A stretch of DNA of 64,000 bases from a bacterium HR37 (GTDB lineage Bacteria > Desulfobacterota_D > UBA1144 > Nemesobacterales > CSP1-2): contig BEIN01000002.1 of NCBI GenBank assembly GCA_002898375.1, forward strand, positions 64,347-128,346, written 5' to 3'. This document shows, piece by piece, positions 150-37,513 of the stretch. The position numbers and the translations under genes were made by a program. Under the pieces are notes generated by a model, which searched no databases, was not told the DNA's origin, and was given only the letters and a program-made list of their open reading frames with translations. Each line of letters begins with the position of its first letter. Positions within the stretch are counted from its first letter, which is position 1.

Positions 150-1064
150 ATGCGTGAAGAAATCCCAGAGGGTTTTTTCTGTAGTGAGCTCTCAGTTGAA
201 TCTGGGGAGAATATGTTTGGAACTGCCCCAAGGGTTGATCTATGGTTGCTCCTGGAGTACAGAGGACATTGGGATGAAAATGCACTACCATCGGTTAGGA
301 TTCCAGAGGATGTAAGGGATCGCCTTTTTAAGTCTTTTGCCTCTATCCCGAACTCGCGCATCCAGTTAATTAAGCGCCACAGTTATAAAAACCCTGATGA
401 TCCCTTAAGACTGTATGTGGTTGTTTCAAAGGAGCTGGAGCCAAAGCTCTATGAGCTTTCCTTCTCTGATTACCCTGATCTGCTGGGTTTTGATATCCGC
501 AAACTGATATCTCAAGATAGATACCTAAGAGATAGCCCGGTTTTCCTTGTGTGTACCCACGGTACATACGATAGGTGCTGTGGTAAATTTGGTATACCGG
601 TTTATCTGGAGGCCTTAAAAAACGAGAGAGATTATATCACATGGCAGTGTAGCCATGTTGGTGGGCATAGATTTGCACCAAATATTTTGTGTTTTCCCCA
701 CGGAATTTACTACGGTCGTGTTGGTAAGGGTGAGGTTACAAACATTATTTCAGACTATAAAAACGGAATATTGAATCTTGAAAAGTACAGAGGTCGCTGC
801 TGTTTTAACCCTGAGGTTCAGGCAGCAGAGTACTTTCTTAGGGCAAATACCGGTGTGGTAGGTATTTCAGAGATACGTTTTAATAAGGCCAGTGAAGTTG
901 AAAAAGATACATGGTTGGTTGAATTTTTTGTGGAGGCTGATGATAAAACTTATTGGGTCTGTGTTAAGAAAGAATCGGGAGCTATTCTTGGTTATATGAG
1001 TTGTGGAGATAAGACCAAGTCTCCTATAGCCCAGTACAAGTTGGTTGATTTTAAAAGACTGTAA
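150..1064 (+). CDS. Sucrase/ferredoxin-like (thioredoxin-like [2Fe-2S], Apd1/Aim32-type) protein
   Basis: VCTHGTYDRCCG, WQCSHVGGHRFAPN and YYGRV motifs. ATG 150 follows GGGAG; the ORF track starts at 84. Confidence 0.85.
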   Translation: MREEIPEGFFCSELSVESGENMFGTAPRVDLWLLLEYRGHWDENALPSVRIPEDVRDRLFKSFASIPNSRIQLIKRHSYKNPDDPLRLYVVVSKELEPKLYELSFSDYPDLLGFDIRKLISQDRYLRDSPVFLVCTHGTYDRCCGKFGIPVYLEALKNERDYITWQCSHVGGHRFAPNILCFPHGIYYGRVGKGEVTNIISDYKNGILNLEKYRGRCCFNPEVQAAEYFLRANTGVVGISEIRFNKASEVEKDTWLVEFFVEADDKTYWVCVKKESGAILGYMSCGDKTKSPIAQYKLVDFKRL

Positions 1065-1128
1065 TTCCCCTGCTTAAAGGTTGATTGTTGTCTTTTAGTA
1101 TGTATATTTAATTACCTCTGGAGAAGCT

Positions 1129-1773
1129 ATGGGAGATAATGCTTTAAAGATTCCAAAGGATCAGATCTACGAGGAAAGAAAAAGAGAGCTTGAGAGGGCT
1201 ATTCGTATTGCGCAAAGAGAGTGGGAGAATATAGGGGTTTCATTAGAACTCTGTGGGGATATAGGAAGGTTTTGTAAAAGCGATTTCATGATAGGTATAA
1301 TTGAGGAAGACATTATAATAAGAGAGCCTCTTATAAGCCCTACGAAGTCTGTTTCAGGGTATTCTCCTACTTTCTATCCCATGTATTTTGTAAGGAACCT
1401 CCTTTTAATGGATCAGAAGCTACCACAGTATGGATATAAAACGGTAGAGGCCCTTTATGTTTTTACGGAGCTTGTACCCAAGGCGGTTGAGAGACTGGGG
1501 CTTTTGGGTAAGTTCAGTATGGCTTTTGGAAATGGTTATGCATATGTCCGTACGGGATGGATTGCTGAGAAGGGAAATCCCTGGGAAAGAGAGTATTTCT
1601 TTAAGATGTTTTTTAAGGGAAGAAAGGTAGATTATGATTGGGATTTCCACTGGACCTCTGTTAAAGAAAGACTAAAAAGGATATTTCAAAAATTTATGGA
1701 ATGGCAAAATGACCCAAACCTTTACGCAAGGGAGATAAAACCCAGGGTAAGGGTTAAACCCATGATGGTTTAG
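1129..1773 (+). CDS. Hypothetical protein, 214 aa
   Basis: Long ORF with GGAG SD and upstream TTGATT-16-TATATT (1081-1108). No motif recognised. Confidence 0.75.
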   Translation: MGDNALKIPKDQIYEERKRELERAIRIAQREWENIGVSLELCGDIGRFCKSDFMIGIIEEDIIIREPLISPTKSVSGYSPTFYPMYFVRNLLLMDQKLPQYGYKTVEALYVFTELVPKAVERLGLLGKFSMAFGNGYAYVRTGWIAEKGNPWEREYFFKMFFKGRKVDYDWDFHWTSVKERLKRIFQKFMEWQNDPNLYAREIKPRVRVKPMMV

Positions 1774-1781
1774 GGCCTTTT

Positions 1782-3149
1782 TCAGATTATCCCAATGTCC
1801 TCATAACCTTCTGCAAGGTTTTCAAAGCTTGGAACCCCAAGCTTTTCAAGAAAAGCAAGCCTTATAGTTCCCGTTGGTCCGTTTCTCTGTTTACCTATTA
1901 TGATCTCTGCGATTCCATCCTTTTGCTCCTGTTCCTCAGGCTTTGTTCTGTATGCATCTGCTCTGTGGATAAATATCACAACATCTGCATCCTGCTCAAG
2001 TGCCCCACTTTCCCTCAGATCAGCAAGCTGGGGAACCCTATTTGCTCTGGCCTCTGTCTGACGGCTGAGCTGGGATACAGCTATAACGGGGACCTGAAGC
2101 TCCTTTGCCAGAGCCTTAAGGGAAGCAGAGATTTCTGCAATCTCTCTTTCTCTGGTTTCGGCCCTTCCCGTACCTCGCATAAGCTGTAGGTAATCTACCA
2201 TGATAAGGTCAAGACCTTTCTCCTTCTTCTGTCTTCTTGCCTTGGCTCTTAGTTCTAAAACGTTAATTGCCGGTGTATCATCTATGTATATCTTTGCCCT
2301 GCTGAAGATATCTGCTGCTTTTATCAGTTTTTCGAGTTCCTCTGCTTTTAGGTATCCACTTCTTATATTTGAGAAGCTTACCTTTGAGACGATAGATAAC
2401 ATTCTAAGCATTAACTGTTCTTTTGTCATTTCCAGTGAAAATATTCCCACTGAAAGACCATGTTCAACGGCTGCGTGTATCGCAATGTTAAGACAAAAAG
2501 AGGTCTTACCCAAACCGGGTCTTGCTGCAACTATTATAAGGTCTGATGGTTGAAGCCCAGATGTCATGCGGTCTAGCTTTTCAAAACCTGTTGGAACCCC
2601 TGTTATTATCTCTTTGCGTGCGTGAAGTGTTTCTATAATCTCTAGTGCCTTTGCAGCCAGTTCTCTTGATTCATAAAAGCTTGGTTTTACCTTGTGCTGG
2701 GCTATATCAAGAATTGCGTGTTCAGCCCTATCAATGAAATCATCAACGTCGATACCTTCCTGTTGAGCGCGATTTGCAATATCCGTTGCCACAAGGACAA
2801 GTTTTCTTAAAATTGCCTTCTCTTTTACAAGCTTTGCATAGTATGCGATGTTTACGGTTGAGGGGACAACCTCGGTAAGATAGGTAAGGTAAGAACTGCC
2901 CCCTACCTCTTCTAGAAGTTTTCCCTTTGATTTTAGGTAGTCAAATAGGGTAAGTATGTCTATTGGCTTGTTGTTCCTATCGAGCTCAATCATTGCGTCA
3001 AATATCTTTCTGTGTGCTTCCTTATAGAAGTCCTCAGGAGTCAGTATTTCCAGAACCTGATTTATTAGACTTCCCTCTATAAGAATAGCTCCAAGAACGG
3101 CCTGTTCAGCCTCTATGTTTTGTGGAAGCGGTTTAGATAGGGTTACCAT
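1782..3149 (-). CDS. dnaB: Replicative DNA helicase
   Basis: PQNIEAEQAVLG N-terminus, Walker A ARPGLGKT, DYLQLM, LRESGALEQDAD, KQRNGP. Confidence 0.98.
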   Translation of the reverse strand: MVTLSKPLPQNIEAEQAVLGAILIEGSLINQVLEILTPEDFYKEAHRKIFDAMIELDRNNKPIDILTLFDYLKSKGKLLEEVGGSSYLTYLTEVVPSTVNIAYYAKLVKEKAILRKLVLVATDIANRAQQEGIDVDDFIDRAEHAILDIAQHKVKPSFYESRELAAKALEIIETLHARKEIITGVPTGFEKLDRMTSGLQPSDLIIVAARPGLGKTSFCLNIAIHAAVEHGLSVGIFSLEMTKEQLMLRMLSIVSKVSFSNIRSGYLKAEELEKLIKAADIFSRAKIYIDDTPAINVLELRAKARRQKKEKGLDLIMVDYLQLMRGTGRAETREREIAEISASLKALAKELQVPVIAVSQLSRQTEARANRVPQLADLRESGALEQDADVVIFIHRADAYRTKPEEQEQKDGIAEIIIGKQRNGPTGTIRLAFLEKLGVPSFENLAEGYEDIGII

Positions 3150-3164
3150 TTCAGTACATTTTAG

Positions 3165-3193
3165 ATTCTATACACATACTAACAAACCTTCAA
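3165..3193 (-). promoter_or_regulatory. sigma70-type promoter of dnaB
   Basis: TTGAAG (3193-3188), 17 bp, TAGAAT (3170-3165). Confidence 0.65.
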
Positions 3194-3194
3194 G

Positions 3195-3917
3195 TTACAC
3201 ACCAAGTAAAAGCCTATCGGCAAGCCATTTGTCAAGACCAGCTTTTACTATCTTTGCCTGTGCCTTTGGTATATCGTAGTTAACCCGGATAAACCGTATC
3301 GACTTTTCCACAGTATCGTATATCAGAAAAGAAGCCCGTGGATCCCTATCTCTTGGTTGCCCTATGCTACCCGGGTTAATAAGGTATTTTTTGTCTGGTT
3401 TTATTCTGAATTCGTTATGAAACAAGGACTGAACTTCTCCATTACAAAATACATATGAGATTCTTACATGGGTGTGTCCGAAGAAACATATACTTTGGTC
3501 CTGCATTAGCTTAAATTCCATAAGGGCATCGTAGGTTGAGAGGATGTAGAGGTCTGGGTCGGATATGGAGCCATGAACTGCTATAAATTCCCCATATTGC
3601 CTTGTATCGGGTAAATTCCACAGAAACTCTTTGTTTTCCTGGGTTAGGGTGTTTCGTGTCCAGAGTATTGCCTTTTTAGCAACTGGATTAAAGCCAATTG
3701 GCTCTTTTTTCCCACATGCAACAGCATCGTGGTTACCTGATATTGATTCTATACCCCGTTGTTTTAGCGTGTCTATACACTCGTTTGGATTCGCTCCGTA
3801 TCCTACTATGTCTCCAAGGCATATTACCTTGTCTGCACGGATTCTGTCTATCTCTTTAAGAGCACTGTTTAGAGCCTCAAGATTTCCGTGTATATCGGAG
3901 ATAATAGCGTATATCAT
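3195..3917 (-). CDS. Metallophosphoesterase (calcineurin-like, MJ0912-type)
   Basis: SDIHGN, GDIVGYG, GNHD, HGS, GHTH, INPGSIGQPRD. Confidence 0.9.
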   Translation of the reverse strand: MIYAIISDIHGNLEALNSALKEIDRIRADKVICLGDIVGYGANPNECIDTLKQRGIESISGNHDAVACGKKEPIGFNPVAKKAILWTRNTLTQENKEFLWNLPDTRQYGEFIAVHGSISDPDLYILSTYDALMEFKLMQDQSICFFGHTHVRISYVFCNGEVQSLFHNEFRIKPDKKYLINPGSIGQPRDRDPRASFLIYDTVEKSIRFIRVNYDIPKAQAKIVKAGLDKWLADRLLLGV

Positions 3918-3924
3918 GCTTTCC

Positions 3925-5256
3925 TTACGTGTGGTTTACAATTACCACACCTATATCCATTACATTCGTTCCGGTTGGCCCTGTTTTAATAAGGTCACCA
4001 AGTCTTTCAAAAAAAGTGTAAGAATCGTTTCTCGATAAGTGTTCTCTTGCACTTAAATTTATCTGTCTTGCCCTTATTCTGGTCTTCCCATCACAAATTG
4101 CTCCTGCAGCATCTGTTGGTCCGTCAATACCGTCTGTACCGCAGAAGAGACCAACAATGTTTCGGTTCATTATCTCCATAGAAAACGCAAGGGCCATCTC
4201 TGTGTTTCTGCCACCTCTACCTGAGCCTGTAACAGTAACTGTTGTTTCCCCCCCAAAGATAATACAGGCGGGTTTTTTTATTGGTATATCCAGCCTTTCT
4301 ACATCCATTGCTATTGCAGCTACTACCTTTGCCACCTCTCTTGCTTCACCGTGTATTTGTGATGAAAGGACTATGGGGTTATATCCAAACTCGCTTGCCT
4401 TTTTCTCAGCTGCTATAAGGGACTTAAAGTTGCTTCCTACAATCACAGTTTGAACCTTCTCCGGATCAAATTCCCCTTCTTTAAGGGTTTCGGGTATGTT
4501 ACCACGTCTTCCTTCCTCTAGGTGGACAACTACCTGAGGGGGAATTTTATGTTCTAGTCTAAGTGCTTCTATTACACGCCATGCATCTTCAAAGGTGGTT
4601 GAGTCTGGCACTGTTGGGCCAGAAGCTATTACATCGAGCTTATCACCAACAACGTCTGATAGCACAAGCGTTATTACCTGAGCCGGTAGGGCATGTTTAA
4701 GTAAACCTCCACCTTTGATCTGAGAGATGTGTTTTCTAACAGCGTTAAGCCCATGTGTGTCAACACCGGAAACAAGAAGCATCTCTGTTACTTTTCTTTT
4801 GTCTTCCAGTGATAGGCCAGGTGATGGCATTGCAAGAAGTGCACTTCCACCACCCGATATTAGGAAGATTACCAGGTCATCTTCCCGTGTAACCTGGAGA
4901 AGTTTCAATACCTCTTTTGCTGCTAAAAGTGATCTTTCATCGGGTATCGGATGACTCGAGAGGAGAAACCTAAGTCTTGAAAAGCTAAAAGGTGGATAGG
5001 AATTGGAGATCACAATCCCGTCGGTAATCCTTTCTCCAAGCACCTCCTCTATTGCCCTTGCCATAGAGGGTGCAGCCTTTCCAAAGGCTATAACGAAAAC
5101 GGATCTGTACCTTCTTAAGTTGTATTCTCTGTTTTCTATCCTTAAGGTATCTCCTTCCAGTAGAACGTGTTCCAGTACACACCTCTGTGGGTTTGCTGCT
5201 TCAAGGGCCTCTTTAAATATCTCAATTGCATGTTCTCTTGTGGTTTTGAAATCCAT
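3925..5256 (-). CDS. Glycerate 2-kinase (MOFRL family)
   Basis: FGKAA, LISGGGSAL, VRKHISQIKGG, SDVVGD, ASGPT, GGETTV, GRGGRN, GTDGIDG, TGPTGTNVMD. ATG 5256 lies 1 nt after the nuoE stop. Confidence 0.93.
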   Translation of the reverse strand: MDFKTTREHAIEIFKEALEAANPQRCVLEHVLLEGDTLRIENREYNLRRYRSVFVIAFGKAAPSMARAIEEVLGERITDGIVISNSYPPFSFSRLRFLLSSHPIPDERSLLAAKEVLKLLQVTREDDLVIFLISGGGSALLAMPSPGLSLEDKRKVTEMLLVSGVDTHGLNAVRKHISQIKGGGLLKHALPAQVITLVLSDVVGDKLDVIASGPTVPDSTTFEDAWRVIEALRLEHKIPPQVVVHLEEGRRGNIPETLKEGEFDPEKVQTVIVGSNFKSLIAAEKKASEFGYNPIVLSSQIHGEAREVAKVVAAIAMDVERLDIPIKKPACIIFGGETTVTVTGSGRGGRNTEMALAFSMEIMNRNIVGLFCGTDGIDGPTDAAGAICDGKTRIRARQINLSAREHLSRNDSYTFFERLGDLIKTGPTGTNVMDIGVVIVNHT

Positions 5257-5257
5257 G

Positions 5258-5731
5258 TTAATCTGCACGAAGTTTTTCTATAAGTTCGTCTATCTTTTTT
5301 CTTGTAAGGTTTTCGTAGAGTTCATCATCAACAAGCATTACTGGTGCGGTGCCGCAAGAGGCTAGGCATTCTGCCTCAAAGAAGGTGATCTTCCCATCAG
5401 GGGTTGTCTCTCCGGGTTTTATCCCGAGTTTTTCAGAAATGTAGTGTTCTACCTGTTGTGCCCCTCTAAGAGCACAGGGAAGTGTTCTACATAGCCATAT
5501 GATGTGTTTCCCAACGGGTTTTGTAAAAAACATAGTGTAGAAGGTTGCTACATTTTGCACATCTGCGGGGGGAATTGAGAGGAGTTCTGCTACCTCTTTC
5601 ATTGAATCAAGTGATAACCAGCCGTATTCACGTTGAACTTCGTGCAAAACAGGGATAAGTGCAGATTGCTTTGTTTCATATTTTGACATAATCTTTTTGA
5701 TCCTTTCCTTCAGGTCTTCTGAGAAAGCCAT
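5258..5731 (-). CDS. nuoE: NADH-quinone oxidoreductase subunit E ([2Fe-2S])
   Basis: SALIPVLHEVQREYGW, VATFYTMF, CRTLPC...ECLASCGTAP. Confidence 0.9.
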   Translation of the reverse strand: MAFSEDLKERIKKIMSKYETKQSALIPVLHEVQREYGWLSLDSMKEVAELLSIPPADVQNVATFYTMFFTKPVGKHIIWLCRTLPCALRGAQQVEHYISEKLGIKPGETTPDGKITFFEAECLASCGTAPVMLVDDELYENLTRKKIDELIEKLRAD

Positions 5732-5881
5732 CCTTTTCCTAATCTCCCAAAAGGTAGTTTTTGTTTAAGATTACATAGTTTGGAGGAGAGTGCAAGCATT
5801 GGATCAGATTAAATATAGGAAGCACTTTCTTCAACGAGTCTATCCATATAAAATAAATAAATCCTCCTTTAGGCAAATGTT

Positions 5882-7186
5882 GTGTTGGGGAATACGAGAA
5901 GAGTTGCAATAGTCTGTGGAATAAGAACACCCTTTATAAGAGCGGGTACCCTGTTTAGGGATTTATCATCTCTTGATCTGGGTAGGATTGTAACCGTTGA
6001 GCTTATAAACCGCTCTGAGGTGGATCCGGAAGATATAGATGAGGTTGTATTTGGATCTATGGTGTCTGTAGCAAGAACACCAAACCTTGCAAGGGATATT
6101 GCACTGGCTTCTGGTATTGGAGCCTCTACCCCCGCATACACCGTTACAATGTCTTGTATCTCCGGTATTCGTGCTTTTACCAGTGCTTTAGAAAGCATAG
6201 CCCTTGGTAACAGGGATACGGTATTGGTAGGTGGGGTGGAGTCGTTTTCTGAATGCGCTTCCTCCTTATCTTCCAAGATGTTTAATATAAAATTAAAAAA
6301 TGGTTCTTTTAAAACAGTGGGTTTGTTGCAGAGGGTAAATGCGTTTTTGGGTAATGGCTCTTACAAGCTGTCTTTTGGCCTTCCCTTTCTGTTAGATGCC
6401 TCAGCTGGCATTACCCTGGGAGAGTCAGCAGAGAAAATGGCTAGAAAGCACTCCATAACCCGCAGGGAGCAGGATGAGTTTGCTGCAAGAAGCCATAATC
6501 TTGCTTCTATATCTGCTAAGGACGGTAGGTTTGGGGAAGAGATTGTTTCTTTGCTGTTACCCCCTGATTTTTCAACTCTGGTGTGTAGTGATAATGGAGT
6601 ATGTAAGGATATATCAGTTGAGGCACTTTCTAAAGAAGAACCGATTTTTGATAGAAGGTATGGTACAGTTACCTTTGGAAACTCTTCTTACCTTAGTGAT
6701 GGTGCTTCGGCTGTTCTTCTTATGGCTGAGGAAAAAGCAAGGGCTTTGGGTTATAACCCTCTGGGATACGTTAGAGCATATGCATATGCCTCTGCCTCTG
6801 TTTGTACAGATGAGAAGCTTCTTATGGGACCGGCTTATTCAACCCCGATAGCCTTAGAGCTTGCAGAACTTACATTAAGGGAAATTGACTTAGTGGAGAT
6901 ACAGGAGACATTTGCTGCACAGGTTCTTTCCAATGCAAGAGCCTTTGCTTCAAAGAAGTTTGCCAAGGAGGATCTTAATAGAAGCAATCCTGTTGGGGAA
7001 ATCGAATTGGAAAGGCTAAATGTTCTTGGTGGCTCCATTGCCATAGGTCATCCATTTGGAGCCAGCGGTCTTGGTGTTATTGTAACGCTCCTTAATGAGC
7101 TAAAACGCAGGGACAGAAATTTTGGTCTAGTATGTATGTCTGCATCCGGGGGGTTAGGTGTATCGATTATACTGGAAAGGGAATAA
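5882..7186 (+). CDS. fadI: FadI-type 3-ketoacyl-CoA thiolase homolog with substituted catalytic motifs
   Basis: RTPF, GGVES, LNVLGGSIAIGHPF and the FadI-type FASKKFAKEDL insertion. HEAF appears as QETF and CAAGG as SASGG. GTG start. Confidence 0.85.
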   Translation: MLGNTRRVAIVCGIRTPFIRAGTLFRDLSSLDLGRIVTVELINRSEVDPEDIDEVVFGSMVSVARTPNLARDIALASGIGASTPAYTVTMSCISGIRAFTSALESIALGNRDTVLVGGVESFSECASSLSSKMFNIKLKNGSFKTVGLLQRVNAFLGNGSYKLSFGLPFLLDASAGITLGESAEKMARKHSITRREQDEFAARSHNLASISAKDGRFGEEIVSLLLPPDFSTLVCSDNGVCKDISVEALSKEEPIFDRRYGTVTFGNSSYLSDGASAVLLMAEEKARALGYNPLGYVRAYAYASASVCTDEKLLMGPAYSTPIALELAELTLREIDLVEIQETFAAQVLSNARAFASKKFAKEDLNRSNPVGEIELERLNVLGGSIAIGHPFGASGLGVIVTLLNELKRRDRNFGLVCMSASGGLGVSIILERE

Positions 7187-7204
7187 GAGGGGATTTAGCA
7201 AATT

Positions 7205-9304
7205 ATGCTTTCCTTTAACGTAGATAAAAGAGGAATAGGGATTTTAAAGATTGGAAAGGGGGATAAAAGCAAGAAGGGGCTTTCATCCAATTTGTTTGTT
7301 GAGCTTGGAAATTTGATTGGAGAAATTGAAGGAGGAAATTATATAAGAGCTGTTATCCTTACGGGGGAAAAAGACGAAGAATTTATCCCGGATATAGACC
7401 TTGAAGAGTTTTTAAAGTTTTCCTCAGAAGATGATGGAAGGTTGTTTAGCCTGCGTGCTCAGGATGTGTTAAATAGAATTGAAAGGTGTAGGGTTCCTTT
7501 TCTTGCAGCTATAAATGGTCTGTGTACAGGAGTGGGGTTTGAGATTGCTCTTGCCTGTAGTTACAAGATAGCCTCAGATAACCCTCGGGTTGCTTTTGGA
7601 TTCCCTGCTGTAAATCTTGGTTTGATTCCCTTTGCAGGTGGAACACAAAGGCTACCCAGGTTGATAGGTATCTCTAAAGCACTTGATGTTTTTCTTAGGG
7701 GGCGTCTTATAGGTACAGCAGAGGCTCTTAGATTGGGTTTGGTAGATGAGGTTGTACCTGAGGAGATTCTTTTAAGTATTGCCCTAGAAAGGGCTCTTAT
7801 GGTTTCTGGTGGTAAGAGGTTAAAATCAAAGCGATTCGGATTTACCAGAGGACTTTTCGAAAAAAACCCTCTCGTTCGCAAGATTTTGTTTAGCAGGGCA
7901 AAAAAGAATCTTGTAGATAAAAGATATGTTAGAAGCCTGGCTCCTCTTATGATTCTTGAGTCTGTAGAGGTGGGAATGGGTGCAAGCTTTAACAGGGGAT
8001 TACATGTGGAGTCTGTGTATTTTGGAGAGCTGGTTGTAAGTGATGTATCACGACAACTGTTAAAGTTCTTTTTATCTGTAGATGATGTTAAGAGGGAGAT
8101 TATCAAACAATCTGGCCATATAGAACCGGTAAAGAAGATCGTGGTAGTTGGTTCAGACCCTTTAGGCTCACAGTTTGCTATTGTTGCTGCTGAGGCAGGT
8201 ATATGTGTAAGACTCTATGACACGGATTATAAAAAGATTGGGGAGGGATTGAGAAATTGCTACAGGTACTTTAAGGGGAAACTTAAATCGGGAGCTATTA
8301 CAGAATTCGATATGAGAAGAAAGTTAAATCTTATAAGTTATACGTGTGATTACACCGGGTTCCGTAATGCTGATCTGGTTGTAGAAACCCTCTTTAAAGA
8401 CTTAGAGAAAAGGCAGGAAATCCTTAAGGGGATTGAGCCGGTTGCTGGCAAGGATACGGTTTTAATGTTGGTTACCTTTTCTACCCCTTTATCTATTATA
8501 TCCTCCGTTCTGTCCAGCTGGCAGGGAAGGGTTGTAGGTGTGCGACCTTTTCTTCCGATTTCCAATACAGGGGTTGTGGAGCTGATCTACCAGGAGGATT
8601 CTCCAAATAGTGCTATTGGTACCGTGGTTGATTTTTTAAGACGCACTGGGATACTTCCGGTATTTGTAAGGGATAAAGAGGGTTTCTTTGCAACACGAGT
8701 TCTTCTTGCCTATCTCTTCGAAGCACTTGAGCTGTTAGGTGAAGGTGCTATGGTTGAGCAGGTTGATGGGGCTATGATAGAGTTTGGATTTCCAAAAGGT
8801 CCATTTGCCTTAATCGATGAGATTGGACTGGAGTTTGTAAGTAAGGTAGGAAAGGAGCTTTGTGAGTCTCTGGGAGAGAGGTTTAAGATGCCACTTCTCT
8901 TGGATAAGATGGCAAGGGAGAAAAATCTAGAGTGGGGAGGGTTCTACAATGCTGAGGGGAAAGTTAACAAGTCAGTTTACAATCTGATTGAAGAAAAGAT
9001 AGTAAACGATAGACTTTTAAAAAGTGACTTTAAGGAAAGGCTCTGTCTTCGAATGCTCAGTGAAGCTATACTTTGCCTTGAAGAGGGCATAATAAGAAAT
9101 CCCAGGGATGGTGATGTGGTTTCTGTTTTAGGCCTTGGTTTTCCTGTTTTCCTTGGTGGTCCATTTCGGTATGCTGATTCTTTGGGATTGGGTATTATTT
9201 TAGAAAAACTGGAAGCTCTCTCCCATAGATTTGGTTCTCGTTTTGCTCCTTCTGGATTGCTAAAGGAGCTTGTACTTGAAAGAAAAAGGTTTTACGATGC
9301 TTGA
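7205..9304 (+). CDS. fadJ: FadJ-type fatty-acid oxidation alpha subunit homolog (crotonase + HAD domains), degenerate motifs
   Basis: AINGLCTGVGFEIALAC, LGLIPFAGGTQRLPRLIG, GFPKGPFALIDEIGL, DGDVVSVLGLGFPVFLGGPF. Confidence 0.85.
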   Translation: MLSFNVDKRGIGILKIGKGDKSKKGLSSNLFVELGNLIGEIEGGNYIRAVILTGEKDEEFIPDIDLEEFLKFSSEDDGRLFSLRAQDVLNRIERCRVPFLAAINGLCTGVGFEIALACSYKIASDNPRVAFGFPAVNLGLIPFAGGTQRLPRLIGISKALDVFLRGRLIGTAEALRLGLVDEVVPEEILLSIALERALMVSGGKRLKSKRFGFTRGLFEKNPLVRKILFSRAKKNLVDKRYVRSLAPLMILESVEVGMGASFNRGLHVESVYFGELVVSDVSRQLLKFFLSVDDVKREIIKQSGHIEPVKKIVVVGSDPLGSQFAIVAAEAGICVRLYDTDYKKIGEGLRNCYRYFKGKLKSGAITEFDMRRKLNLISYTCDYTGFRNADLVVETLFKDLEKRQEILKGIEPVAGKDTVLMLVTFSTPLSIISSVLSSWQGRVVGVRPFLPISNTGVVELIYQEDSPNSAIGTVVDFLRRTGILPVFVRDKEGFFATRVLLAYLFEALELLGEGAMVEQVDGAMIEFGFPKGPFALIDEIGLEFVSKVGKELCESLGERFKMPLLLDKMAREKNLEWGGFYNAEGKVNKSVYNLIEEKIVNDRLLKSDFKERLCLRMLSEAILCLEEGIIRNPRDGDVVSVLGLGFPVFLGGPFRYADSLGLGIILEKLEALSHRFGSRFAPSGLLKELVLERKRFYDA

Positions 9305-9322
9305 TTTAATGAGGGGTAGGTT

Positions 9323-10156
9323 ATGAAAGTACAAAAGCATGATAGGTACCATTTGGTGGTATTAATATTTTCGTTTACAGGTCTTTTACTCTCTCTTTAT
9401 TTAACTTACCTTTACTACAGCAAAGCACAGGCTGCATTTTGTAGTGCTGGTTCTGGATGTGATATTGTACGAGAAAGTCCCTATTCGCAAATTGCAGGTA
9501 TTCCTGTTCCGCTTTTAGGTGTTTTCGGGTATTTCTTAATAGGTGTTTTATCTCTTGTATCCATAAGCAGTAGGGGCAAATGGTTGCTTCTGTATGCACT
9601 TTCACTGGCTGGGTTTGTTTTCTCCGCATATCTAACCTATATTGAGCTTTTTGTTATACATGCCCTGTGTTTCTACTGTGTTGTTTCAGCTATTTTGATC
9701 TCAGCTGTATTTATCATACTGTTGGTTAAAAAACCAACTCTGGCTCCCCAGGAATCCCTTTTAAAGGTTCTCTTGTTAAGTATAGTGATTGCAGGTTCTG
9801 TTCTTATGGGGTCTTTTTTTCTACACCCCAGAGAGGGGGTTTCCTCAAACACAGATAGCTCCTCCCGCGTTGGACTTGCAAAACACCTCTCAAGTATAGG
9901 AGCGGTTATGTACGGATCATATAAGTGTCCACACTGTTTGGCTCAGAAGTATCTTTTTGGAGAGGAGGCCTTTAAGTACATAAAATACGTTGAGTGCCAT
10001 CCAGAGGGGAAAAACGCAAACCCTTCTCTGTGCCTTGAGAAGGGAATAACTGCATATCCTACCTGGGAGATAAACGGAAAATTCTATGTCGGGGCAATGT
10101 CTCTTAAAGAGTTGGCTAGAATCTCAGGGTACTCTTTAGAGAACACACAACCCTAG
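9323..10156 (+). CDS. VKOR-family disulfide formation protein fused to a thioredoxin-like domain
   Basis: Loop cysteines FCSAGSGC, TM CFYC, C-terminal YGSYKCPHC...YVEC...C...YPTW. Confidence 0.88.
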   Translation: MKVQKHDRYHLVVLIFSFTGLLLSLYLTYLYYSKAQAAFCSAGSGCDIVRESPYSQIAGIPVPLLGVFGYFLIGVLSLVSISSRGKWLLLYALSLAGFVFSAYLTYIELFVIHALCFYCVVSAILISAVFIILLVKKPTLAPQESLLKVLLLSIVIAGSVLMGSFFLHPREGVSSNTDSSSRVGLAKHLSSIGAVMYGSYKCPHCLAQKYLFGEEAFKYIKYVECHPEGKNANPSLCLEKGITAYPTWEINGKFYVGAMSLKELARISGYSLENTQP

Positions 10157-10176
10157 GTAAGCTTTGAGGGACTATT

Positions 10177-11868
10177 TCAGTTTAGATCTATTATCCTAAG
10201 GCGTATTCTTTTCTCTCCGTTCCATGTGTTAATCTCAGGTGTAAAAACCATATCTATCTTTTTTGGAACCGAAATGGGCTCTTTTAAGTTAAACCATATT
10301 GCATCAAAGATTTTGTTTCCCTGCCTTACCTTAAGTCCTAGGTGCTTTTGTTTAAAAAAACGCTGGGACAGCACATCAACTGATCTTGCAAGAAACACAG
10401 GCTCTGGATTTCCGATGCCAAAGGGGGAAAGCAGGTTTAACTCTGATACTATTTTCTCGTCTATACATTCAAGATTTACCATGCTATCAATCCTTAGCTT
10501 TAAGACGTTTTCTATTTTTGATTCTCTTACGATGTATTCAAATCTGTCTCTGAACTGTTCTATTCTTTCCTCTCTAATGGATAGCCCAGCTGCAAGCTGA
10601 TGTCCCCCAAATTGCTCAAACAGGTCTTCACATCTGGTTAGAGCCTCGTATATGTTTAGTCCTTCTATGCTCCTGCCGGAGCCTTTTCCTATTCCATCTT
10701 CCCCGATGGAGATAAGCACTGTGGGCTTGTTGTAGATTTCAACCATCTTTGATGCCACTATCCCTATAACACCCGGGTGCCAGTTCTTAGAGGCCAAAAC
10801 AATCGAGCACGATTTGGCAAAATTGGTGCTGGATTCAACCTGCCCAATGGCTTCTTTTAGGATCTTCTCCTCTATTAGCTGCCTTTTTGTGTTTTCCTGA
10901 TTTAGGATTCTTGCAACTTCCCTAGCCTTTTCAATATCCTCGGATATAAGGAGCTCTACAGCAAAACCAGCATTTCTTAACCTCCCTGAGGCATTTACTC
11001 TGGGTCCAAGCTTGTAACCAATATCGTAGACATCTACTTCTCCGCGGATTCCACTTACCTCTTTTAAAGCCTTTATTCCGGGCCTCTTGGTGCGTGTAAG
11101 TCTTTTAAGTCCCTCTTTAACGAAGATCCTGTTTACGTTTACAAGCGATGCACAGTCTGCAACGGTTCCAAGTGCAACAAGATCAAGGTAGTCTCCGAGG
11201 TTTGGTTCGGTTTTTTTGAAAAAACCCGACTCTCTAAGTACCCTTCTAAGTGCAATTGTGAGGTTAAAAATAACACCCACACCGGTTATTTCTTTCCCCG
11301 GGTAGTTGCATCCCGGTTGGTGTGGATTTAGCACTGAAACTGCTTTTGGAAGGATCTGAGGTGGTTTGTGGTGGTCTGTAACTATAAAATCTATCCCAAG
11401 CTTTTTTGCTTCTTCAACCTCTCTCCATGCTGTGATCCCACAGTCACCGGATACTATAAGAGAAACACCTTCAGACTTTAGCTTCCTTATGGCTTCTATA
11501 TTAATACCGTAACCCTCTTTTAATCTGTGAGGGTTATAGTATGTTACCTTTGTTCCGATATTCCTTAGGAATGTGTAAAGCAGAGCAGTTGCTGTAACAC
11601 CATCTACATCGTAGTCACCGTATATAGCTATCTTCTCGTTTCTCTCTATGGCCTTTTTTATTCTCTCTACGGCTTTATCCATTCCCTTTAGAAAGAATGG
11701 GGAAGGGATATCAAAGAGAGAACTCTCTAGAAAGAACTCTGCTTCAACTTCGTCTTTTATTCCTCTATTTATCAAGAGCTGTGCGGTTATTGGAGATATG
11801 TCAAGGGCCTTTGCCAGTTTCTCTCTAAGTCTTGGGTTTTCCTTCTCTATCACCCAGTGTTTCTTCAT
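10177..11868 (-). CDS. recJ: ssDNA exonuclease RecJ
   Basis: YGDYDVDG, EGYG, DCG, TDHH, LGTVAD, GPRVNASGR, GSGRS, GGHQLAAG, PFGIGNPEP. Confidence 0.97.
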   Translation of the reverse strand: MKKHWVIEKENPRLREKLAKALDISPITAQLLINRGIKDEVEAEFFLESSLFDIPSPFFLKGMDKAVERIKKAIERNEKIAIYGDYDVDGVTATALLYTFLRNIGTKVTYYNPHRLKEGYGINIEAIRKLKSEGVSLIVSGDCGITAWREVEEAKKLGIDFIVTDHHKPPQILPKAVSVLNPHQPGCNYPGKEITGVGVIFNLTIALRRVLRESGFFKKTEPNLGDYLDLVALGTVADCASLVNVNRIFVKEGLKRLTRTKRPGIKALKEVSGIRGEVDVYDIGYKLGPRVNASGRLRNAGFAVELLISEDIEKAREVARILNQENTKRQLIEEKILKEAIGQVESSTNFAKSCSIVLASKNWHPGVIGIVASKMVEIYNKPTVLISIGEDGIGKGSGRSIEGLNIYEALTRCEDLFEQFGGHQLAAGLSIREERIEQFRDRFEYIVRESKIENVLKLRIDSMVNLECIDEKIVSELNLLSPFGIGNPEPVFLARSVDVLSQRFFKQKHLGLKVRQGNKIFDAIWFNLKEPISVPKKIDMVFTPEINTWNGEKRIRLRIIDLN

Positions 11869-11888
11869 TTTTGCGTCCCGGTAGAGGA

Positions 11889-12338
11889 TCAGGCTGATTG
11901 TTTTTCTTTAAGGTAATTTACCAATCCTCTGAGCCCAAGGAGATAGCTCTCTTTACCAAATCCCGATACCACACCTACTGCTACATCCGAGATAAATGAC
12001 CTTCTTCTGAATTCTTCGCGTCTGTATATGTTGGATATATGAACCTCAACCGTTGGTATGCTTGTTGAGATTATAGCGTCTCGAATCGCAATGCTTGTGT
12101 GGGTATATGCAGCAGGATTTATAAGTATTCCATCGAATTTTCCGATAGCTTCCTGTATCTTTGTTACAATCTCTCCTTCGTGGTTTGACTGAATTAGCTC
12201 TATATAGACTCCCAGTTCACTTGCCAGTTCCCTAAGCATTGAGTTGATTTCCTCAAGGGTGGTTTTTCCATATATCTCGGGCTCACGTTTTCCAAGAAGG
12301 TTTAGATTTGGCCCGTGAATAACAAGTACTTTAAACAC
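11889..12338 (-). CDS. aroQ: Type II 3-dehydroquinate dehydratase
   Basis: [42 protein letters not shown] 12338 follows GAGGA. Confidence 0.97.
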
Positions 12339-12339
12339 C

Positions 12340-13041
12340 TTATTCCTCGCTTTTTTTTGATTCCTCCAGCTGTGTTCTTGCTTGTTCAAGTTTCATACGA
12401 ATATTATCGTTTTCTGGATAGGTTTCAAGTAGTTTTTCAAGTATCTTTATAGCCCTTTCATAGAGCTGTTGTTTAAGATATAGATCAGCCATTGTTTCAG
12501 TGTATATCTCGGTATCCACAAACTCAAAATCTTCTTCGCTCAATGATTCGGGGTTTTGTGCTTCCATGGAGTCTTTGTCTTTTCTGTACGTTAGAATCTC
12601 TTTTTTTATCTCTTCTACAGTCTCTATAAGTTCGTTGTCCTCAGGGTGAAAGACAAGAGTTGATAAGGCAAGGTGAAGGGCCTGATCTAATCTACCTTCA
12701 CTTATATATATCTGAATAAGGATTTTGCTTGCATTAACATTATCAGGAGCGTGTTTTATAACCTCTTCCATCTCTTTTTTTGCTTCATCTATCATCCATC
12801 TCTCATAGTAGATCTTACCAAGTATGAACCTTGCTGTAATATTGTGTGGGTTATTTTTTAAGCCCTTTATTAATACTTCTATGGCTTTATCCAATTCGTC
12901 CTGTTTTCTAAGTATCTCACCTAGGAAGACAAAGTCAGAAGAGAAGGGGTTTTCCATTAGGTTTTTCTCGAATTTCTCCTTTAGCTTCTGGATGTCATCT
13001 TCTAATAACAGGTAATTCTTTAGTTCAGATTCCTCTTTCAT
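12340..13041 (-). CDS. Tetratricopeptide-repeat protein
   Basis: Helical repeats ([28 protein letters not shown]) and C-terminal [18 protein letters not shown]. Confidence 0.8.
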
Positions 13042-13200
13042 GGTAACCTTGATATTACTTTAAAATGATAATCTGAGTCAAGGTGGGTACTTTTAGAGAG
13101 TAACGGGTTTTTTAGATGCAGGGATTTAAGGAAATGAAATGGCAAACTTGGGAGTTTTTGTATAGGTTAATATTGTTGTCTTTTTAAGGAGGTTTTATCA

Positions 13201-13746
13201 ATGGCTATAAGGATTAATATATCAAGATACGGAAGGGTAGTGGGTACAAGAGAGGAAGGAAAGAAGGTACAAAGGGATATAGTTCACAGTATAGAGAAGT
13301 TACCTGAGGGAGGTACTCTTATTGTAAATCTAAGGGGGGTAAAGGTACTTAGTGGTTCTTTTGCAGATGAGGCTGTTGTGATTCCCTATCAGAGGCTGGT
13401 TAGCGGTGAGTACGGTGAAAAAAATATGCTTATTGAGTGTAGTAACAGAGAAGTCCTTGAGGATCTTGAAGCAAAGCTTGAGAGAAGAAAGCTTGCTATG
13501 CTTGGCTTGGGAAAGGATTCACAGTGGTATGTTATAGGAAATCTAAATAAATACCTCCAAGAGACTTTGGAGGAAATTGTAAAGAGTAAAAAGGTAACTG
13601 CAGGGGAGCTTGCTCAAAAGCTTGGAATAAGCGTTACCAACTGCAACAACAGGCTTTCTAAGCTCTACAGATTAGGCCTGATAAAAAGAGAGAGGGTTAA
13701 CAATGTAACTGGGGGGATCCTTTATTTCTACAGGTCCATTATTTAA
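13201..13746 (+). CDS. STAS-like (DUF4325-type) domain plus C-terminal winged helix-turn-helix
   Basis: GTREEG...VNLRGVKVLSGSFADE, then TAGELAQKLGISVTNCNNRLSKLYRLGLIKR. AAGGAGG SD. Confidence 0.7.
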   Translation: MAIRINISRYGRVVGTREEGKKVQRDIVHSIEKLPEGGTLIVNLRGVKVLSGSFADEAVVIPYQRLVSGEYGEKNMLIECSNREVLEDLEAKLERRKLAMLGLGKDSQWYVIGNLNKYLQETLEEIVKSKKVTAGELAQKLGISVTNCNNRLSKLYRLGLIKRERVNNVTGGILYFYRSII

Positions 13747-13780
13747 TTTAACGGTCTTGGTTTTCTGGTTTCCTGTTTTG

Positions 13781-13812
13781 TTGATTTTATCATTTTCATT
13801 GAATACAATGAA
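13781..13812 (+). promoter_or_regulatory. sigma70 promoter with palindrome over the -10
   Basis: TTGATT (13781-86), 17 bp, TACAAT (13804-09). TTCATTG-aata-CAATGAA at 13795-13812. Confidence 0.55.
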
Positions 13813-13848
13813 TATATAGTATGGGAAGATAAGGGGGTAGAATTTTAC

Positions 13849-14286
13849 ATGGAAAAGATAAAGGGTACTGTGGAAAAGGCAAATGCAAGGGGCATTAAAC
13901 TCGATGGCAAATGGTATAACTATTCAAAGTTTATGGAAGAAGATATACCTAAGGTGAGTGAAGGTGATAGGGTTGAAGTGGATATTAGCGGTGATTGGAT
14001 AAAGGGAGTAAAGATTCTCTCACATCGTCCCTCTGAACTTGTAGAGGATAGGGAAAGTTACTTTACGGAGAAAAGAAAAAGGGATTTAGAACGTCAGATT
14101 GTAGTTACAAGGCTTGCATGCCTTAACACCGCTACCGAGATTCTAAAATCACACGCACGACCTATTAAGGCCAAAAGCCTGTTTAGAGTTGCTGAAGAGC
14201 TTGAGAACTGGGTCTGGCGTGGTCTAAAGAGGGAAATAGAAAGGGATATTGAAGAAGATAGGATAGAGTTCGAAGGAGAGGAATAA
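13849..14286 (+). CDS. Hypothetical protein; putative OB-fold-like ssDNA-binding protein with acidic tail
   Basis: Beta-rich N-terminus with aromatic residues (KWYNY, DWI), helical RQIVVTRLACLNTA, C-terminal EEDRIEFEGEE. Confidence 0.7.
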   Translation: MEKIKGTVEKANARGIKLDGKWYNYSKFMEEDIPKVSEGDRVEVDISGDWIKGVKILSHRPSELVEDRESYFTEKRKRDLERQIVVTRLACLNTATEILKSHARPIKAKSLFRVAEELENWVWRGLKREIERDIEEDRIEFEGEE

Positions 14287-14305
14287 TGCTTGGTTTGAGC
14301 TGAAT

Positions 14306-15865
14306 TCAGCTTTTCCTTCTTATCATTCTAAGAATGAAGCTTACTTCTTCAATTCTTAGCAGCTTTGATAACCCTATGTAGAGTAGAGCTGGGATCAGCA
14401 TTGATAGTGAGAATACAACTACCTTCTTTAGAGATACTGTGCTTTCAGTCCATTTTTCAATAGAGGCTATAGTCCATGCTGCCAGTCCCATGATAAATGC
14501 TGCAAGTATTACCTTTGCAATGAACAAAAGGTGTTTCTCTATTTCTATATATCCAGCACGCTTTCTCAGTATTAAGAATAGAATGGTGAAATTTAGGATG
14601 GAGGATAAAGAACTTGCAAGGGCAAGACCTAGGTGTTTTAAGCCTAAAACAAACCCTAGTAGATACCCGAAGAAAGCATTTGCCAGGAAAGCAATAAATG
14701 CAACAAGTACTGGGGTCTTTGTATCCTGAATGGCATAGAAAGTTGGGACGGTTATCCTTATTCCTCCAACTGCCCAGAGTCCAACGGCGTAACCGAGGAG
14801 AGCCTCTGAGGTTCGAACGGTTGCTTCGTAGCTAAATTCTCCTCTTTGATAAAGCAGATTGCAAATGGGAATTCTAAGTACTATTAGCCCTATAAGGGCT
14901 GGAATCATAACATATAGCATAAGTCTTAAGGCAAAAGAGTAGCTTTCCCTAAATTTCTCTGTTTCCCCCCTTGTGATATGAGAAGAAAGAGTTGGTAGAA
15001 GCGCTGTGGCAATGGATACGGCTACCGTTCCCAGAGGAAACTCAATTAATCTTTCAGAGTAGTAAAGGTAAGATACCGTTCCTTCGGGAAGATGAGATGC
15101 AAACTGTGTGCTTACAAGTATGTTTAGGTTGTACACTGCAAGTCCAAATATCTGTGGTGCCATAAGGAGTGCAATCTTTTTTACAGCTGGATGGTATATG
15201 TTCCTACTGAAGCTGTGAAGAAGATGTCTTTTCTTTAGAAACGGGATCTGAAACAGAAACTGTAGAGCTCCCCCTATAATTACTCCTATGGCAAGAGAGA
15301 GTATGGGGGGATTAAGGCTCTTGTAAATAAGAAGTATTATACCGATGCTCGTAATATTGAAGATCACCTGTGAGAAAGAAGGGGCAAAAAAATGTCTTAC
15401 AGAGTTTAGGATTCCCATTGAAAGGGCCGTAAGTGATGCAAATATTATGTAGGGAAACATTATACGGTTTAGATTTACAGCTAGATTAAATAGCTCGCCC
15501 TTAAACCCTGAGGCAAAGAGCTTTACTATTAAAGGTGAAAAAACAACTCCAAGGAAGGAGATAACAAGCAATGCAGCAGAGAGTGTGGTAAATGTTGCAT
15601 CGGCAACCTTTTTGGCTTCCTCTTTTCCCTTTTTCTCAAGATATTCCGTAAATACAGGGATAAAAGACACTGTCAGTGAGCCTTCTGCCAGAAGACGCCG
15701 AAGGAGATTTGGAATCCTAAAGGCTACGTAGTAAGCGTCTGTCTCTGCCCGTGCCCCAAACAGGTAGGCTATTACCATATCGCGTATGTATCCTGTTATT
15801 CTGCTTACAAGAGTAAAAAGCCCTACTATGCCTGCAGAACGGGTTATATCTTCTTGATGTTTCAT
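14306..15865 (-). CDS. murJ: Lipid II flippase MurJ (MviN)
   Basis: SRITGYIRD, AFRIPNLLRRLLAEG, YYSERLIEFPLG, FYAIQDTKTP. ATG 15865 preferred over 15904. Confidence 0.97.
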   Translation of the reverse strand: MKHQEDITRSAGIVGLFTLVSRITGYIRDMVIAYLFGARAETDAYYVAFRIPNLLRRLLAEGSLTVSFIPVFTEYLEKKGKEEAKKVADATFTTLSAALLVISFLGVVFSPLIVKLFASGFKGELFNLAVNLNRIMFPYIIFASLTALSMGILNSVRHFFAPSFSQVIFNITSIGIILLIYKSLNPPILSLAIGVIIGGALQFLFQIPFLKKRHLLHSFSRNIYHPAVKKIALLMAPQIFGLAVYNLNILVSTQFASHLPEGTVSYLYYSERLIEFPLGTVAVSIATALLPTLSSHITRGETEKFRESYSFALRLMLYVMIPALIGLIVLRIPICNLLYQRGEFSYEATVRTSEALLGYAVGLWAVGGIRITVPTFYAIQDTKTPVLVAFIAFLANAFFGYLLGFVLGLKHLGLALASSLSSILNFTILFLILRKRAGYIEIEKHLLFIAKVILAAFIMGLAAWTIASIEKWTESTVSLKKVVVFSLSMLIPALLYIGLSKLLRIEEVSFILRMIRRKS

Positions 15866-15939
15866 ACGAGGGGTGTAGTTTATACCAAGACATAGGGTAA
15901 TCAAGAAAGAACTAGCTACTCTGTATTTGTAAGTAGTCT

Positions 15940-16881: not shown

Positions 16882-17089
16882 GGGTTAGCTCATCAAATTC
16901 TATTTCGTTTTTTAGGTTTTTAAGGATCTCAAGTGTCTCATTAAGGGTATCCTCGGTGGTGATAAGTTTTATTATCCCCCTGTCTGGGTCTTCTGACCTT
17001 ATCCAGGCGGTGTGGCAGTATGTACCCAGTATGGACTGAAGTGATACGGTTTCGCTTGGTTTTTTTAGTTTTATGTACACAACAGGCAT
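16853..17089 (-). CDS. Small protein, DUF4911-like
   Basis: 78 aa; ILGTYCHTAWIRSEDPDRGIIKL recalls DUF4911. Promoter directly upstream. Confidence 0.55.
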   Translation of the reverse strand: MPVVYIKLKKPSETVSLQSILGTYCHTAWIRSEDPDRGIIKLITTEDTLNETLEILKNLKNEIEFDELTPTAHPQQAE

Positions 17090-17095
17090 AAAACT

Positions 17096-17125
17096 AGAGT
17101 AAAACAGCGATCTGTTTTATGTCAA
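17096..17125 (-). promoter_or_regulatory. Leaderless-type promoter with palindromic spacer
   Basis: TTGACA-18-TACTCT-6 nt-ATG. TAAAACAG-cgat-CTGTTTTA at 17100-17119. Confidence 0.55.
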
Positions 17126-17267
17126 GTAGAGTGTTAGAAATAATATATATTTACGGTTAGTTTAGCATAATAAATAATATTTTACATCAAGTTTTTTGCT
17201 TAACCGATTAAAATTTCATTTATTATATAAATAAGAGCTAAAAAAACCTTAGATTTCAAAAACTTAC

Positions 17268-17323
17268 TTGACAAAATTTATGCGTTTTTATATAGTGGTT
17301 TAAAGTGGCATAAAGTGGCATAA
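17268..17323 (+). promoter_or_regulatory. dcw promoter with three MraZ-box repeats
   Basis: TTGACA (17268-73), 17 bp, TATAGT (17291-96). GTGG at 17295, 17305 and 17315 (10-bp period). Confidence 0.85.
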
Positions 17324-17334
17324 AAAGGTTTTTA

Positions 17335-17781: not shown

Positions 17782-17784
17782 AGT

Positions 17785-37498: not shown

Positions 37499-37513
37499 CT
37501 GCCATTCCTCTTT

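Follow-up and report, generated by a model that had tools for sequence, protein, structure and literature searches.

Trifunctional enzyme (TFE) complexes are textbook channeling enzymes and, so far as we found in the literature, have always been described as catalytic; moonlighting roles have also been reported for HADHA. The closest described system to the gene pair reported here is the E. coli anaerobic TFE FadI/FadJ (anEcTFE; 6YSV, 6YSW, 8BNR and 8BNU), the best match of both subunits with a TM score of 0.90. The human mitochondrial trifunctional protein (TFP) HADHA/HADHB (6DV2, 5ZQZ), of the same alpha2beta2-type family, is the second-best match with a TM score of 0.92 and, unlike the pair described here, is fully catalytic. 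In MtTFE, the catalytic residues are Glu-alpha-119/141, His-alpha-462, Ser-alpha-441 and Cys-beta-92 (PMC11301753). Our literature search returned no naturally degenerate or pseudoenzyme TFE, and neither a Dadabacteria TFE nor details of its beta-oxidation. The window, a 64,000-nucleotide stretch of contig BEIN01000002.1 from bacterium HR37, contains a fadI-fadJ-like gene pair that matches these systems in fold and the E. coli one in gene order, and has lost catalytic residues at its thiolase, hydratase and dehydrogenase sites. On balance, we lean towards reading this pair as a retained pseudoenzyme-type TFE, that is, a CoA/acyl-CoA-binding or scaffolding alpha2beta2 assembly or, at most, a carrier of acyl thioesters, and probably not a beta-oxidation enzyme.

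The gene pair has the domain organization and fold of a TFE. It consists of the following genes:

5882-7186, plus strand: fadI-like gene (434 aa, GTG start), encoding a TFE-type beta subunit of thiolase fold whose active site is degenerate
7205-9304, plus strand: fadJ-like gene (699 aa), encoding the alpha subunit with crotonase and 3-hydroxyacyl-CoA dehydrogenase (HAD) domains, hydratase and dehydrogenase sites degenerate

Both open reading frames (ORFs) are uninterrupted and lie on the same strand with a gap of 18 nt. Their order, beta then alpha, is kept in all related loci and is shared, like the domain architecture, with E. coli FadI/FadJ. The fadI-like protein matches the Pfam domains Thiolase_N and Thiolase_C with 206 and 110 bits, respectively, and the fadJ-like protein matches ECH_1, 3HCDH_N and two copies of 3HCDH, corresponding to a crotonase domain, a HAD NAD-binding domain and two HAD C-terminal domains. 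The top PDB match of the fadI-like protein is 8bnu_A (E. coli anaerobic TFE, E = 2e-101), with 6dv2_A (human TFP) also found, and that of the fadJ-like protein is 8bnu_C (E = 6e-117; 8BNU/6YSV, E. coli anaerobic TFE), followed by human mitochondrial TFP. Structures were modelled as monomers only; the AlphaFold2 model of the alpha subunit has a pLDDT of 88.8 and a pTM of 0.88 and gives TM scores of 0.90-0.93 to TFE-alpha structures. The best NCBIfam models are FadI (NF006516) with 459 bits and FadJ (NF008363) with 561 bits, under the equivalog cut-offs of 560 and 869, respectively. The initial annotation had described two full-length, adjacent, uninterrupted ORFs of FadI/FadJ architecture, and the coordinates agree with it exactly, as do Pfam, NCBIfam and PDB matches in kind. 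The thiolase fold of beta, the domain set of alpha and the gene order are thus those of the TFE family, while the scores stay below the equivalog cut-offs and the catalytic fingerprints are incomplete at all three sites. A collection of 5.8 billion proteins contains just two close relatives of alpha (98% and 91% identity), with the next matches at 47% or less. The 91% relative belongs to the L005 lineage, the sister of the window lineage, whose beta subunit (P0122) is 94% identical to that of the window.

The alpha subunit has lost key residues of both its dehydrogenase and its hydratase site. Residue states were read from alignments with the E. coli and human complexes (anEcTFE and TFP), from a survey of 120 homologs per subunit and from the consensus of each class of related loci described below. 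The dehydrogenase motifs were additionally compared with the canonical Hbd of the same genome. The positions concerned are:

7391-7393, plus strand: codon of Asp63, with which the first oxyanion-hole motif of the crotonase domain reads FIPDID instead of FI(A/S)G(A)D (G63D), only in the window lineage
7541-7543, plus strand: codon of Glu113, first catalytic Glu of the hydratase, kept
7607-7609, plus strand: codon of Ala135 replacing the second catalytic Glu of the hydratase (Glu2), PEV changed to PAV; the position of MtTFE alpha-E141A
8150-8167, plus strand: codons 316-321, GSDPLG, the NAD-binding GxGxxG motif, degenerate through replacement of its middle Gly by Asp318 (Asn in the sister)
8543-8545, plus strand: codon of Arg447, where the HAD His-Glu dyad normally has its catalytic His; equivalent to MtTFE His-alpha-462 (PMC11301753)
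8579-8581, plus strand: codon of Glu459, the dyad Glu, kept in all classes
39906-40772, plus strand: stand-alone hbd gene for a canonical 3-hydroxybutyryl-CoA dehydrogenase (NF004474, 428 bits, above the cut-off of 408) with GAGTMGSG, NTSS and GMHFFNP intact

With an Asp in GxGxxG and Arg for the catalytic His, the dehydrogenase should be unable to bind NAD or to abstract a proton, and the claim that its site is destroyed is well founded. The HAD motif SNTSS reads VTFST in the fadJ-like protein, with the catalytic-site Ser426 kept. Because Glu459 is kept in all classes, the residues suggest that an Arg447-Glu459 salt bridge may stand in for the His-Glu dyad. The hbd product was proposed in the initial annotation as a canonical comparator and its model score and intact motifs justify that use; it would supply intact HAD activity in the same genome. 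The Asn208-equivalent position of HAD, T497, had been treated as a further sign of dehydrogenase loss and was discarded, since many canonical TFEs carry Thr or Ser there; MtTFE has Ser-alpha-512 at the equivalent position (PMC11301753). The case for hydratase loss is strong as well: with the second catalytic Glu and the first oxyanion-hole motif both gone, this activity is predicted to be disabled. Compared with the E. coli protein (31-33% identity), the alpha subunit lacks Glu2, FIAGAD, GxGxxG and the catalytic His. A135 and R447 coincide with the two alpha sites altered in MtTFE alpha-E141A and alpha-H462A (7O1I, 7O1K, 7O1G and 7O1M, together with beta-C92A). Those variants are laboratory point mutants of a canonical enzyme, whereas the window pair has many more changes and keeps the beta nucleophile.

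The thiolase site of the beta subunit is only partly degenerate. Thiolases are characterized by the fingerprints CXS, VMG, NEAF, GHP and CXG, with Cys378 as the base, and in the superfamily the oxyanion hole is provided by Cys plus His-His or Asn-His (PMC3406046). The corresponding positions in the window are:

6155-6157, plus strand: codon of Cys92, the thiolase nucleophile in the CXS fingerprint (C-I-S), kept
6902-6904, plus strand: codon of Gln341, N/HEAF changed to QETF, oxyanion-hole His replaced by Gln; private to the lineage of the query, P0121 and P0122
7049-7051, plus strand: codon of His390, the GHP His, kept in the window; Tyr (GYP) in the 94%-identical sister (L005/P0122)
7133-7141, plus strand: codons of Cys418-Met419-Ser420, acid/base Cys of CXG changed to Ser420, with a lineage-specific Cys418 two residues upstream

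The nucleophile position is invariant in 120/120 beta homologs surveyed, and the CXS fingerprint reads C-I-S in human TFP as well. The binding fingerprints GNSS.L.DGA (CoA), LMG and CXS are kept, while two of four thiolase fingerprint residues, the HEAF His and the acid/base Cys, are lost; both are absent here in contrast to E. coli FadI. At the acid/base position, canonical relatives read (T/S)-x-C-A-A-G-G and the window lineage reads C-x-S. A convergent 'Cys shift' was considered for locus L039 and rejected; L039 has the C-to-S change without a Cys at -2. Inactivation of the thiolase is therefore plausible but incomplete as judged from its residues. Claisen cleavage and condensation should be lost together with the acid/base Cys and the HEAF His, and acylation of Cys92, with the help of His390, and binding of CoA/acyl-CoA may persist. 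The earlier claim that all three catalytic motif sets are substituted consequently holds for the dehydrogenase and the hydratase and goes too far for the thiolase, which keeps Cys92, LMG and His390. A described precedent for a thiolase fold with replaced catalytic fingerprints is TLP1 of Mycobacterium smegmatis, in which NEAF, GHP and CXG are affected (PMC3406046). TLP1 differs from the window beta subunit in being monomeric and about 15% identical to thiolase, in lacking the nucleophilic Cys as well and in not belonging to any TFE pair (PMC3406046).

The window pair descends vertically, with synteny preserved, from the ancestrally canonical TFE of a Dadabacteria-like clade of Thermodesulfobacteriota. 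The conserved gene order comprises DnaB, a metallophosphatase, a MOFRL glycerate kinase and a NuoE-like protein, followed by the divergently transcribed thiolase, FadJ-like and VKOR genes. This neighbourhood is found at L005-L008 (91% relative), L009 (47% relative), L011-L013, L015 and L016, and the versions occupying the same slot at L011-L013, L015 and L016 are either fully canonical or otherwise degenerate. All named relatives are metagenome-assembled genomes (MAGs) of Candidatus Dadabacteria or Thermodesulfobacteriota, the former being a class within the latter in NCBI taxonomy. An alignment-based search for related loci mostly gave canonical FadJ of other phyla, which were used as outgroups only. 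Because the ancestral syntenic slot also holds canonical orthologs, the pair is an ortholog and not a duplicate, and an origin as a degenerate paralog of an active copy was rejected. The suggestion that the pair could be an inhibitory partner of an active paralog finds no support, as no active paralog is seen in the scanned parts of the window. Sharing of substitutions and synteny among related genomes, a further point raised in the initial annotation, holds for the substitutions in the 98% and 91% relatives, which carry the same catalytic-residue changes as the window copy, and for synteny also at other loci, whose same-slot versions are canonical or differently degenerate.

Related loci form a graded series of degeneration. 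In class A, both alpha and beta are canonical; in class A*, only the alpha His is changed, to Arg or Tyr. Class B combines a canonical beta with an alpha in which Glu2 is Gly, the Rossmann motif is broken and His is Arg. In class C, alpha carries Gln for Glu2, Arg or Lys for His and a broken Rossmann motif; in beta, Ala, Pro or Ser stands at the acid/base Cys position and GHP reads GHT, with Cys-His-His invariant. Class D, the query lineage, is the sole class in which FIxGxD and the HEAF His are lost as well. NCBIfam scores drop in step with class, canonical orthologs of the clade scoring 608-618 (FadI) and 817-879 (FadJ). Class A orthologs (P0010/P0126 in L015 and P0009/P0151 in L016) have the same chromosomal slot and neighbours as the window pair, to which they are 45-47% (alpha) and 57-61% (beta) identical. 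They keep all catalytic fingerprints and, unlike the window pair, reach or approach the FadI/FadJ cut-offs. Classes B and C (P0069/P0200 and P0059/P0223) have the same synteny and resemble the window pair in the loss of alpha Glu2, the broken Rossmann motif and the His to Arg change, and class C beta also resembles the window beta in having lost the acid/base Cys. Both classes differ from the window pair in keeping FIxGxD, HEAF and the GH(P/T) His, in their tighter constraint (dN/dS about 0.09-0.14) and in their replacements, which are Gly or Gln for Glu2 and Ala or Pro for Cys. The degenerate state had been noted as a property of this genome; it recurs in graded form across the clade, and the window lineage is its most degenerate member.

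Degeneration in the query lineage is independent of that in classes B and C. By parsimony, the His to Arg change occurred at least three separate times and the thiolase base Cys was lost at least three times. A neighbour-joining tree of alpha groups the query with classes B and C, which would imply a single origin of degeneration. This grouping was rejected as long-branch attraction, because the window groups with class A/A* genomes, separate from B/C, at a bootstrap of 1.0 in a concatenated tree of the control genes (DnaB, MOFRL and NuoE-like; 1060 columns). The query branch is several-fold longer than class A for both TFE genes, but not for the control genes. Synonymous divergence (dS) between the window and L005 varies four-fold between neighbouring genes at 150-18738, from 0.06 to 0.27, which could reflect a recombination patchwork of the two lineages.

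Class C deserves separate mention. Its beta subunits (L011, L017 and L018; P0173-P0233) form a large Dadabacteria-like FadI set with the base Cys changed to Ala or Pro, GHP changed to GHT and a dN/dS of about 0.09. Given this tight constraint, class C beta is probably functional as a re-purposed thiolase-like enzyme, with a degenerate alpha as its partner. All examined class C loci, and the class E locus L019, carry Glu or Asp in TVT[E/D]GNS.

Purifying selection on the pair is retained but clearly relaxed, and catalysis is no longer constrained in the window lineage. Ratios of nonsynonymous to synonymous substitution rates (dN/dS, omega) were calculated by NG86, mainly for the window against the 91% relative L005. 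The fadI-like gene has a dN/dS of 0.213 (23 nonsynonymous and 33 synonymous substitutions, P(omega>=1) = 4e-8) and the fadJ-like gene one of 0.289 (64 nonsynonymous and 62 synonymous, P = 1e-10). Comparison with the 98% relative gives 0.23 and 0.28, respectively. In the comparison with L005, omega is significantly below 1 in 6/7 domains and lowest, at 0.18, in the alpha crotonase lobe. Over the window/L005 divergence, 5.3 + 12.8 (about 18) nonsense substitutions would be expected under neutrality and 0 are observed, and indels among the three sampled copies are in-frame only and all located in one loop. These observations substantiate the proposal that selection maintains the two ORFs, and the contrary combination considered in the initial annotation, canonical orthologs together with a dN/dS near 1 in this copy, does not occur. 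Neighbouring housekeeping genes have omega values of 0-0.09, and constraint on the pair is 3-10 times looser than on its neighbours. Relative rates normalised to MOFRL plus NuoE-like show the same trend: the rate of beta is 0.9-1.4 times that of the controls when canonical, 1.7-1.8 times in class C and 2.3-2.9 times for the window against class A, and within lineage D beta reaches 5.5 times and alpha 9.4 times the control rate. Former catalytic positions are still changing in the sister lineage (H390Y, S395C and D318N). Because of the relaxed constraint and the drift at H390Y and D318N, a new chemistry relying on the ex-catalytic residues, one of the options offered in the initial annotation, is argued against in this lineage. 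The pair thus combines homology and fold, loss of catalytic residues and subsequent purifying selection, three of the features that characterise a pseudoenzyme. The two proteins retain the folds of a TFE alpha/beta pair and are kept intact by relaxed purifying selection. Residue states, orthology with synteny, selection and fold are what the data show; the loss of activities, the formation of a complex and a binding or scaffold role are inferred from them.

Several observations weigh against a retained pseudoenzyme, and part of them would be explained by slow decay, in which beta-oxidation is dispensable, the pair is drifting to loss, and omega stays below 1 through selection against misfolding or toxicity or since the loss is too recent. 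No other class has an omega as high as the window lineage (0.21/0.29 against 0.06-0.16; the values of other classes, 0.06-0.09 for beta and 0.09-0.16 for alpha, come from comparisons with dS near saturation), as would be seen in a gene pair on its way out. Within-lineage rates are 5-9 times those of control genes, and the alpha linker (201-305), with an omega of 0.79 that is not significantly below 1, is near neutral. The changes H390Y, D318N and S395C at former catalytic positions and the lineage-specific loss of the oxyanion motif point in the same direction, as do weak translation-initiation signals of the fadI-like gene. A scan of 5732-5881 upstream of it gave no sigma-70 consensus match and no strong ribosome-binding site. 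We nevertheless consider decay unlikely. The degenerate state is older than the window/L005 split, yet omega has remained significantly below 1 since then in 6/7 domains; about 18 nonsense changes are expected and none is seen, with all three sampled lineages intact and carrying in-frame indels only. In addition, class C, with similar catalytic loss, has an omega of about 0.09, which shows that degenerate TFEs of this clade can have a function. Further reservations about the pseudoenzyme reading are that the monomer model of beta is of moderate quality (pLDDT 70.9, with a confident core and a low-scoring loop domain), that redundancy of beta-oxidation was judged from 64 kb of genome only, and that Glu113, Ser426 and Glu459 in alpha and Cys92 and His390 in beta are kept, which makes residual or altered catalysis conceivable.

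Such residual catalysis could take the form of a beta-oxidation-type enzyme that uses Cys418 or Ser420 as acid/base and a one-Glu hydratase/isomerase, with Hbd carrying out the dehydrogenase step. SCP2-type thiolases are reported to take their base Cys from a different loop, and here the apparent (T/S)-x-C to C-x-S swap, the retention of Cys92, His390, LMG and the CoA-binding fingerprints, the kept Glu113 and the canonical Hbd in the window would all suit this arrangement. It is made very improbable by the sister lineage, which has replaced His390 with Tyr in an intact ORF, by the changed HEAF oxyanion residue and the destroyed first crotonase oxyanion motif (G63D), and by the strongly accelerated evolutionary rate; engineered alpha E-to-A and H-to-A variants were also deposited alongside C92A, according to the titles of the PDB entries. 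The alternative that the pair is neofunctionalised, the Cys-His core of beta performing acyl transfer or base-independent condensation (decarboxylative and KAS-like, for example) and alpha serving as a CoA-ester docking module, seems hardly more probable for this lineage. All classes share an invariant nucleophile Cys, class C beta keeps Cys-His-His under strong constraint after losing the base Cys, and the superfamily uses Cys plus His-His or Asn-His for its oxyanion hole (PMC3406046). The query lineage, however, is loosely constrained and has not conserved the His-His pair (Q341, and Y390 in the sister), and no linked gene hints at a new pathway, the neighbours being housekeeping genes that are syntenic for phylogenetic reasons. 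The case for neofunctionalised Cys-His chemistry is stronger in class C than in the window lineage.

Extending the pseudoenzyme reading of the window pair to the clade, a TFE may have lost its beta-oxidation chemistry repeatedly and independently and yet have stayed in its ancestral locus under purifying selection (omega about 0.09 in class C) for an undescribed function outside beta-oxidation, with the window pair as its most derived form. We put this forward only tentatively. Examples of such a function would be Cys-His(-His) acyl transfer, base-independent condensation, acyl-CoA sensing or a membrane/lipid-associated structure. A natural orthologous and syntenic series from fully active to triple-degenerate complexes would be an unusually clean system for studying non-catalytic scaffold roles of TFEs (assembly, CoA-ester binding and membrane association) and could show how multi-site enzymes turn into pseudoenzymes. 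Automatic annotation names the pair 'FadI/FadJ' or '3-hydroxyacyl-CoA dehydrogenase/enoyl-CoA hydratase', and metabolic reconstructions would therefore wrongly credit many Dadabacteria-like MAGs with a full beta-oxidation cycle.

The immediate neighbourhood of the pair contains the following features:

5258-5731, minus strand: NuoE-family 2Fe-2S gene (TIGR01958, 179 bits, above the cut-off of 142), divergent from the fadI-like gene
5732-5881, no strand assigned: intergenic region of 150 bp between the divergent nuoE-like and fadI-like genes, presumed promoter region of the fadI-fadJ(-VKOR) unit; layout shared by all related loci
9323-10156, plus strand: VKOR-family membrane protein gene, 18 nt after the fadJ-like stop with no terminator between

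The VKOR-family gene is probably co-transcribed with the pair and follows that pair at all related loci with sufficient flanking sequence (L005-L015); no NCBIfam model matches it. The nuoE-like gene is an orphan with no other nuo genes nearby. Its protein is 100% identical to the L005 ortholog (dN = 0) and its synteny is clade-wide. An attempt to deduce function from the neighbours (NuoE-like, VKOR and MOFRL kinase) was rejected as uninformative, the whole region being syntenic across the clade.

The scanned parts of the 64-kb window yielded neither a second TFE, crotonase or thiolase nor an acyl-CoA dehydrogenase. The scanned sequence holds an acyl-CoA carboxylase/methylmalonyl-CoA decarboxylase-like set, PntAB, ribonucleotide reductase (RNR), malic enzyme, aminoacyl-tRNA synthetases and a dcw cluster; the dcw region at 17-33 kb was annotated solely through the syntenic L005 gene table. 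At 35493-39058 (minus strand), genes for an mmdA-like carboxyltransferase (868 bits, below cut-off), biotin carboxylase and BCCP lie in a row, followed by CoaE and Hbd (39178-40772). The stretch from carboxyltransferase to Hbd is a small acyl-CoA metabolism cluster that is positionally unrelated to the TFE pair. No Rfam family reaches its gathering score in the 64 kb, and no tRNA, rRNA or riboswitch was detected.

Codon composition in the window follows the strand. GT3 is 0.605 and 0.619 for the fadI-like and fadJ-like genes, within the range of all plus-strand genes (0.55-0.67) as against 0.39-0.50 for minus-strand genes, and cumulative GC skew climbs monotonically across the window, which is therefore probably part of a single replichore, most of its genes having the same orientation. 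The G/T-rich codons of the pair had been raised as a caveat pointing to recent decay; this was rejected, as the bias is common to all plus-strand genes and reflects strand asymmetry of the replicon. Two antisense ORFs within the fadI-like and fadJ-like genes (5869-6276 and 7561-8106, minus strand; 135 and 181 aa) have low-complexity translations rich in Ser, Thr and Pro and are most likely by-products of strand bias and not genes. Further downstream, at 61436-62521 (plus strand) and adjoining thiE, this bacterial genome carries a gene of the deoxyhypusine-synthase family (Pfam DS, 302 bits).

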